DNA of 64,000 nt from Botryllus schlosseri (lineage: Eukaryota): the NCBI GenBank assembly GCA_051294905.1, contig CM119372.1, forward strand, positions 31,126,001 through 31,190,000. Reading direction: 5' to 3'. The notes below the pieces were generated by a model. That model worked only from the letters and a program-made list of their open reading frames with translations. It made no database searches and was not told the DNA's origin. Below are positions 17,817-18,372 of the stretch, piece by piece. The stretch's first letter is position 1; each line of letters opens with the position of its first letter. Made by a program: the position numbers and the translations under genes.

Positions 17817-18065
17817 TTATCTTGAGTATAGCAAACTATGTGCCAATTCTTCTAGTTTGTTCATTGTGGCACGACGACCGTTCTTTCGTATCCAGGTCTG
17901 TATCATTTGATAACGCTGCTCTGTTAAGTTGTTTCGATCCATATATTCACATTCTTCAATTTCATTAGCAGATAGTTCAAGTTTTGAGCGAGCAAATCTC
18001 TTCCAGTTCCACGGTTCAATTCGTTCTATTATACTATATGCATCTCGGGACGTGATCTCAGACAT
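17817..18065 (-). CDS. Stand-alone death domain protein
   Basis: WKRFARSKLELSANEIEEC...LTEQRYQMIQTW...GRRATMNKL fits the death-domain consensus (W..FAR.LGL...I; EQ.YQML..W; AT...L). Confidence 0.87.
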   Translation of the reverse strand: MSEITSRDAYSIIERIEPWNWKRFARSKLELSANEIEECEYMDRNNLTEQRYQMIQTWIRKNGRRATMNKLEELAHSLLYSR

Positions 18066-18087
18066 AATGCGTTTGCTTCAATATCTA

Positions 18088-18372
18088 TTAGTAATTAAAT
18101 GTGATATGGTATCGCTTGCTACGCTCTTCCGCTTCTTTATTCCATTCGACTACCAGAGGGCATGAAGAATATATTCTGCTGTGTATGCTCCATACACCGC
18201 ATTCATCGAAAAAACTGGTCAAGTCTTCAAACACACCTTTACATTTATAGCATTTCACATTGTTGCGAATACCAGTATGAAACAATCCACACATCGCTAA
18301 TTTATATACATCAATTTCGAAATTACATTGATACGACTCGAATGACATCAATCTATATCTCAAACTATTCAT
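18088..18372 (-). CDS. Single-BIR protein (divergent)
   Basis: RLMSF...LAMCGLFHTG..NVKCYKC...W.IHSRIYSSCP retains the C2HC zinc ligands. Confidence 0.85.
   Translation of the reverse strand: MNSLRYRLMSFESYQCNFEIDVYKLAMCGLFHTGIRNNVKCYKCKGVFEDLTSFFDECGVWSIHSRIYSSCPLVVEWNKEAEERSKRYHITFNY

Follow-up and report, generated by a model that had tools for sequence, protein, structure and literature searches.

The window analysed here, a stretch of 64,000 nucleotides, is gene-dense and intronless from position 727 to about 18400; past about 18700, few long frames occur and repeats abound. The features of the dense part are these:

727..1941, minus strand: three-BIR IAP, 404 aa (Pfam BIR in three stretches, E 1.5e-42)
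1983..2708, minus strand: metacaspase-like protease gene, 241 aa, no prodomain (Pfam Peptidase_C14, E 5e-10)
3525..4802, minus strand: probable major capsid protein, 425 aa (weak Pfam DJR-like match, E 0.017, below cut-off; core-module position)
6928..7914, minus strand: retrovirus-like integrase with chromodomain (Pfam rve, E 4.2e-12; Chromo, E 9.9e-7)
8718..9401, minus strand: A32-type packaging ATPase (Pfam Pox_A32, E 2.5e-10)
9340..13504, minus strand: presumed protein-primed polymerase region, three frames and a duplicated 5' piece (no Pfam polymerase match)
15858..16481, plus strand: second single-BIR gene, with a long N-terminal extension and one in-frame stop in this copy
17415..17738, minus strand: 107-aa gene, no Pfam family, downstream neighbour of the death-domain gene
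18065-17817, minus strand: death-domain-only (DD-only) gene, 82 aa, with its own ATG and stop
18066..18087, minus strand: 22-nt spacer from the BIR gene to the DD gene; the frames differ and stops lie between
18372-18088, minus strand: BIR-only gene, 94 aa, with its own ATG and stop

Since an integrase, an A32-type ATPase, a probable capsid and polymerase pieces occur together, the element around the gene pair is a Polinton/Maverick, and the pair sits at its accessory end. The rve and Pox_A32 matches are above the Pfam cut-offs and the capsid match is weak; we take 9340..13504 to be the polymerase from its PolB motifs, and the Polinton protease was likewise named from motifs. A duplicated 5' polymerase piece, 90% identical, occupies 13043-13504. 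Because the polymerase is in pieces, the genes of this copy may be idle. The stop in the second BIR gene may be particular to this copy; contigs of two other sequencing runs differ from the window inside 15858-16481. An array of about 80-nt repeats (15338-15737) separates divergent gene blocks, and a 161-aa plus-strand gene of no Pfam family lies at 16496-16981. Self-comparison of the window gave no inverted pair bracketing the genes as terminal inverted repeats would, and the left end is perhaps outside the window; the end-motif search was set for three repeats, where the available text of PMC8097293 gives two. According to the same text, accessory regions flanking the core genes are usual in such elements.

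No RING was found in the 404-aa IAP. The 241-aa protease has intact His and Cys motifs, and five of its six PDB matches are named metacaspases. We rejected it as the lost catalytic half of the DD protein, as it is metacaspase-like and not a DD-caspase catalytic domain; animals are not known to have metacaspases. Close to the left edge, a small fold-back element (47-689) with 141-nt arms and a 107-nt tandem pair comes to within 38 nt of the stop codon that closes the three-BIR IAP gene. On the other side, a host NACHT frame (37847-39184) and a downstream piece like the Styela protein P0033 make up 36973-39184 on the minus strand; 36988-37329 matches a Styela protein at E 8e-11 with a small query set, and no DD for the NACHT frame was found in the window. 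A very long inverted repeat with 41-nt tandem repeats runs from 51583 to 64000 and past the window edge, its arms of 3155, 682, 587 and 439 nt being 98-99% identical. Near 18680-18745 the sequence looks tRNA-like to the eye, but neither ARAGORN nor Rfam supported a tRNA there.

Both tiny genes of the pair are real. The initial annotation described an 82-aa DD-only gene 22 bp downstream of a 94-aa BIR-only gene, and open reading frames, Pfam matches and structure models all agree with this description. Pfam detects no family besides Death in the 82-aa protein or BIR in the 94-aa protein. The same two-gene layout, without indels, was found again in contigs of two other runs, X8 and X5, in a comparison of copies and reads that covered 4 of 24 sequencing runs. 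One X8 contig of 777 nt, running from 17762 to 18550, has 9 substitutions relative to the window; all 12 of its gap bases are upstream of the BIR start and none falls within the 556 nt of the pair. Contigs from X5 cover the DD gene, the spacer and most of the BIR gene without a gap. These X8 and X5 contigs may be alleles of one insertion. Given the separate frames and the same layout in two other runs, we rejected a BIR-DD fusion as the main reading.

Other X8 and X5 contigs match the window up to 17806 and then diverge, 11 nt short of the DD stop codon. This indicates that in related elements, next to the 107-aa neighbour, other DNA takes the place of the DD gene, which is therefore a variable accessory gene. 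The 107-aa gene itself has more and deeper contig cover than the DD gene in two runs. In about 6% of X24, a bulk RNA run, we found 13 reads, 11 of them partly fitting and none on the DD gene; these 13 reads do not show expression of the BIR gene. Run X21 yielded no matching read, which does not bear on expression. We did not count X8 as expression, because its RNA nature is a guess and its spacers are covered as well as its genes.

The 82-aa protein matches Pfam Death (PF00531) over residues 11-74 with 45.4 bits against a cut-off of 22.6 (E 8.9e-12). Its AlphaFold model, built on an alignment of 28 sequences, has a pLDDT of 91.6, and the top fold match is the RAIDD DD (Z 11.7, rmsd 2.1, 79 residues). 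Fold ranks 1-30 are all DD entries, with the first CARD at Z 5.7 and the first PYD at Z 4.3. Many family members tie in the fold lists of both the DD and the BIR; for the DD the domains of TNFR1, FADD and RAIDD share the top (Z 11.4-11.7). A death fold is thus predicted, as the initial annotation expected, with five helices (6-15, 18-27, 33-42, 47-65 and 68-80) and not the six it had called for. The absent one is presumably helix 6, judging by the usual helix boundaries.

The Pfam match of the 82-aa protein ends at model position 69 of 86, and in the two DD-only proteins, the 82-aa DD and its relative P0001, the end is at 69-70. Matches of DD-caspases stop early too, at 64-75 of 86 in seven of seven, unlike those of TNFRs, which reach 82-85 in ten of ten. 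The short form therefore looks inherited and not damaged, although plain divergence could also shorten such matches. Prodomains of DD-caspases seem to be without helix 6 as well. Five helices do not refute a decoy reading, as the short form seems common to the likely donor domains. Helix 4, which contributes to DD-DD interfaces, is the best-kept part of the domain, with 17 of 19 residues shared with P0001 and 12 of 19 with P0003. A DD profile search of the 64-kb window returned no second DD.

A homologue search of 1.84 billion proteins at E<=0.001 gave 47 hits: seven DD-caspases, ten TNFRs, and multi-DD or DD-only rows. The closest is P0001, an 83-aa protein that is only a DD (119.8 bits, 58/82 identical, 71%) and comes from ENA contigs of <=1134 nt. 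After P0001, single-domain scores run from P0003 (57.9 bits) through P0005 (51.1), P0008 (46.3), P0012 (44.6), P0011 (44.0) and P0015 (43.8) to P0013 (43.5), and these best seven comprise five DD-caspase prodomains and two exon fragments. By the same measure the top TNFR with a cysteine-rich region reaches 38.3 bits, and Styela non-caspase DDs about 20-22 bits. P0003 has 529 aa and aligns with the 82-aa DD from Met1 to Met1, with 38 identities over 79 aligned positions (48%; 51% by HMMER). P0005, P0008 and P0011 are Styela clava caspases. Wherever a caspase prodomain relative carries a species name, the species is an ascidian; the best prodomains are 48-51% identical and collinear from Met1. 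A profile search among longer proteins added three DD-caspases for a total of ten; four other top matches of that search were members of its own query alignment and so not independent. All ten have an N-terminal DD and intact catalytic His-Gly and Cys motifs.

Trees of these domains point the same way. In a tree of 56 rows, the DD-only pair (100/94) stands beside P0003 (90/70) and two Styela caspases (90/85), inside a 21-row group (96/91) in which all nine named rows are ascidian (Styela, Ciona, Clavelina). This group also holds the tandem-DD non-caspase proteins P0019, P0028 and P0033. Its ascidian names, together with the Styela match at 36988-37329, suggest that the host is an ascidian. This second tree excludes P0018 and P0006, which form long branches; the TNFR label of four DD-only rows was assigned once the first tree had been seen. 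The first tree, of 48 rows under a mixture model, has the same shape with lower support (84/86 and 81/84). The alignment has 82 columns and resolves little: in AU tests, neither a placement of the DD-only proteins among TNFR-type DDs (p 0.29) nor one with three Styela non-caspase DDs (p 0.22) is rejected. Mean identity to the 82-aa DD is 28.3/82 for the ten DD-caspases and 25.0/82 for 12 TNFRs; the gap between these means being small, the case for a caspase origin leans on P0003. P0003 could itself be element-borne. Both P0003 and P0059 are full-length DD-caspases, each with a longest contig of 7259 nt; if they lie on one contig, they would be intronless tandem genes, host or element-borne. 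The top PDB sequence match of the DD is TNFR1; the search gave no ascidian entry for comparison. On the scores and trees, we consider it probable, though not proven, that the 82-aa DD derives from a caspase prodomain.

Further searches bear on how such a gene may have been acquired. Scanning metagenomes with the DD gave four loci from 82 candidates, which look like intron-bounded cellular DD exons, and no match to any other element gene was found at these four loci. At two of them (L001:10001-10168 and L004:1044-1220) the cellular-looking exons, which belong to the subfamily of the viral DD, seem to stop after helix 4 at a GT donor, the point past which the viral DD gene continues uninterrupted. 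An uninterrupted gene fits capture from spliced RNA or from an intronless copy. Scans of viral contigs with the DD and with the capsid protein gave no relative, a BFVD fold search gave no match at E<=0.001, which does not imply absence, and atlas searches returned only generic BIR and Death clusters. A complex prediction for the viral DD with the P0003 prodomain, made without alignments, scored 0.30 against a mark of 0.34, a result that we weigh neither for nor against the decoy reading.

The 94-aa protein matches Pfam BIR (PF00653) over residues 7-74 with 32.4 bits against a cut-off of 22.9 (E 1.4e-7). Its AlphaFold model (pLDDT 83.5, alignment of five sequences) fits XIAP BIR2 best (Z 12.2, rmsd 1.5, 75 residues). 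The Cys-x2-Cys...His-x6-Cys zinc site is intact (C41, C44, H64, C71). Between C44 and H64 lie 19 residues, where three of the element's other BIRs have 16; the three-residue insert is modelled as an extra helix (51-57). A Trp common to all four other BIRs of the element is absent, identity to these BIRs is about 25-27%, and a word-index protein search found no homologue. According to the portion of PMC8917759 available to us, type II BIRs have Glu/Gln at position 76 and Trp/His at 80 and bind caspases and IAP antagonists; type I BIRs bind TRAF or TAB1, and Ile, Val or Leu at 80 is type I-like. The 94-aa BIR has I63 and I67 at positions 76 and 80, so that neither type II residue is present and the Ile at 80 is type I-like; the third BIR of the element's three-BIR IAP has both type II residues. 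The idea that the BIR-only protein is a decoy against caspases or IAP antagonists, which the initial annotation proposed, is therefore not supported: with Ile63 and Ile67 in place of the type II residues, a role as a caspase or Smac decoy is unlikely. Like the type I BIRs described in that source (XIAP BIR1, cIAP BIR1), it has the zinc ligands, a hydrophobic residue at 80 and no Glu/Gln at 76; it differs from them in standing alone, in its three-residue insert and in lacking the Trp of the other element BIRs. We treat it as a separate domain and make no claim that the two proteins share a pathway.

There is precedent for small proteins of this kind. Clustering through their death-fold prodomains is what activates initiator caspases, and a prodomain copy on its own acts as a decoy; COP, INCA and ICEBERG are non-enzymatic CARD-only decoys derived from caspase-1, ICEBERG being 53% identical to its parent (PMC3775265, in the part consulted). 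The 82-aa protein likewise consists of one death-fold family and no catalytic domain, and resembles COP/CARD16, INCA/CARD17 and ICEBERG/CARD18 as a small, enzyme-less prodomain copy with about 50% identity to a parent. Here, however, the domain is a DD and not a CARD, the gene is Polinton-borne and not a host gene, and the parent would be an ascidian DD-caspase. Viral proteins that are only a death-fold domain include the vPOPs M013 and gp013L of poxviruses (PMC3775265), vFLIPs (PMC9371342) and the ranavirus vCARD (PMC3407895), as far as the available portions of these papers describe them. They too are lone host-derived domains in a DNA virus or virus-like element, but their domains are PYD, DED or CARD and their carriers large DNA viruses, whereas here a DD lies in a Polinton. 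In the literature searched, which did not cover subscription papers, we found no viral or Polinton DD-only protein.

Homologues of IAP and Bcl2 are known accessory genes of adintoviruses (PMC8502044, available text), which makes the BIR-only gene less surprising. As with the IAP/Bcl2 cargo of adintoviruses and Mavericks (PMC8502044 and PMC8097293, as available), anti-death genes lie here in accessory regions flanking the core; the BIR differs in being single and type I-like. We found no death-domain or caspase cargo in the text and supplement portion of PMC8502044 or in the available part of PMC8097293, and a term search of the accessible text of PMC11071296 and PMC11131425 returned no death-domain cargo. 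On the host side, a death-caspase architecture has been noted in amphioxus, model Brafl1_105741 (PMC2575513, in part). The viral protein matches the N-terminal DD of DD-caspases (amphioxus Brafl1_105741; Styela clava P0005, P0008, P0011, P0057), the amphioxus likeness being one of architecture, and lacks their linker and catalytic domain. The consulted part of a Ciona caspase survey names no DD-caspase and describes one caspase with a prodomain that defied identification (PMC10923776). In the literature searched, we found no paper on the function of ascidian DD-caspases.

Our leading reading, which we regard as an even bet, is that the 82-aa gene is a captured ascidian DD-caspase prodomain acting as a decoy. 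The element would have captured the first ~80 codons of a DD-caspase gene, closed by a stop. Host DD-caspases would be activated by clustering via DD-DD contacts on some upstream platform, and an enzyme-less viral DD could enter or cap the cluster so that the zymogen stays inactive, in the manner of CARD-only proteins acting on caspase-1. Infected cells would thereby be kept by the DD decoy from killing themselves. The BIR-only neighbour would be a zinc domain in its own right, type I-like, whose surface likely contacts a signalling protein; that it holds a caspase or a Smac-type peptide in a groove is unlikely. For the DD, acting as a decoy remains the best reading, as proposed at the outset, but its probable source and target are others than those then named (FADD, TRADD, MyD88 or RIP): the closest relatives are a stand-alone DD and then caspase prodomains, and none of the 47 hits has an adaptor-defining partner family (DED, TIR, kinase) among the Pfam families listed. 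More tentatively, and with the balance somewhat against it, ascidians may have a lineage-specific caspase pathway of short five-helix DDs, which Polintons answer with a DD-only prodomain mimic.

The DD-only protein could instead be a decoy for another DD complex, whatever its origin: a death receptor, a FADD/RIP-like adaptor, a DD-bearing NLR or a PIDD-like sensor. Origins from TNFR-type DDs (p 0.29) and from Styela non-caspase DDs (p 0.22) both survive the AU tests, the DDs of TNFR1, FADD and RAIDD tie in the fold list (Z 11.4-11.7), and the tandem-DD non-caspases P0019, P0028 and P0033 belong to the ascidian group. We still find this unlikely, given the lower per-domain scores of such proteins (<=38.3 bits for TNFRs, about 20-22 for Styela non-caspases) and TNFR DDs that reach the end of the Pfam model where the 82-aa DD stops short. 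Slightly less probable is passive cargo, a pair captured once and drifting in a non-autonomous copy with no present function. Consistent with drift are the broken polymerase and plus-strand BIR gene of this copy, the lack of any RNA read on the DD gene in about 6% of one run, the BIR with no listed homologue, and the related copies without the DD gene at this place. Yet P0001, which differs at 24 of 82 positions, preserves start and length (83 aa) together with 17 of the 19 residues in helix 4, all four zinc ligands are kept in the BIR, and the 12 gap bases of X8, possibly an allele of the same insertion, all fall outside the 556-nt pair.

It is rather improbable that the DD-only protein promotes signalling, nucleating DD assemblies that lead to late cell lysis or to survival signals of an NF-kB-like kind. 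NF-kB activity does rise with COP/Pseudo-ICE and with the vPOP of Shope fibroma virus (PMC3775265, in part), a neighbouring type I-like BIR would suit signalling of the TRAF/TAB1 type (PMC8917759, in part), and the same element carries a metacaspase-like gene; but its other recognisable death-pathway cargo is of the IAP type, and INCA and ICEBERG, likewise prodomain copies, are described as inhibitors in the consulted part of PMC3775265. It is very improbable that both frames belong to a single BIR-DD IAP, broken or spliced, comparable to the DD-bearing IAPs that oysters have. On their shared strand the BIR does precede the DD, the order also seen in BIR-DD-RING IAPs (PMC8917759, available text), and three frame-keeping GT-AG pairs lie between the frames. 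Against this, the Pfam listings of DD relatives contain no BIR in any of the 47 hits or 15 longer hits, the DD starts where caspase prodomains start, P0001 stands alone, and two other runs show no indel between the genes and list no joint, with RNA cover almost nil.

If the DD is indeed a prodomain copy, the DD would join the death-fold types that viruses employ on their own as decoys. Viral mimics flag host pathways important in defence, and the copy would mark the DD-caspases of ascidians, which have been little studied, as likely effectors against viruses and provide an 82-residue probe for locating the platform that activates them. If the more tentative idea of a lineage-specific ascidian caspase pathway is true, the protein would be the missing DD member of the series of viral death-fold decoys (vFLIP, vPOP, vCARD), and would point to a pathway of antiviral death, so far unstudied, in the vertebrates' sister group. 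Retention of this kind of cargo would strengthen the idea that Polintons of animals, like viruses, encounter cell-death defences.
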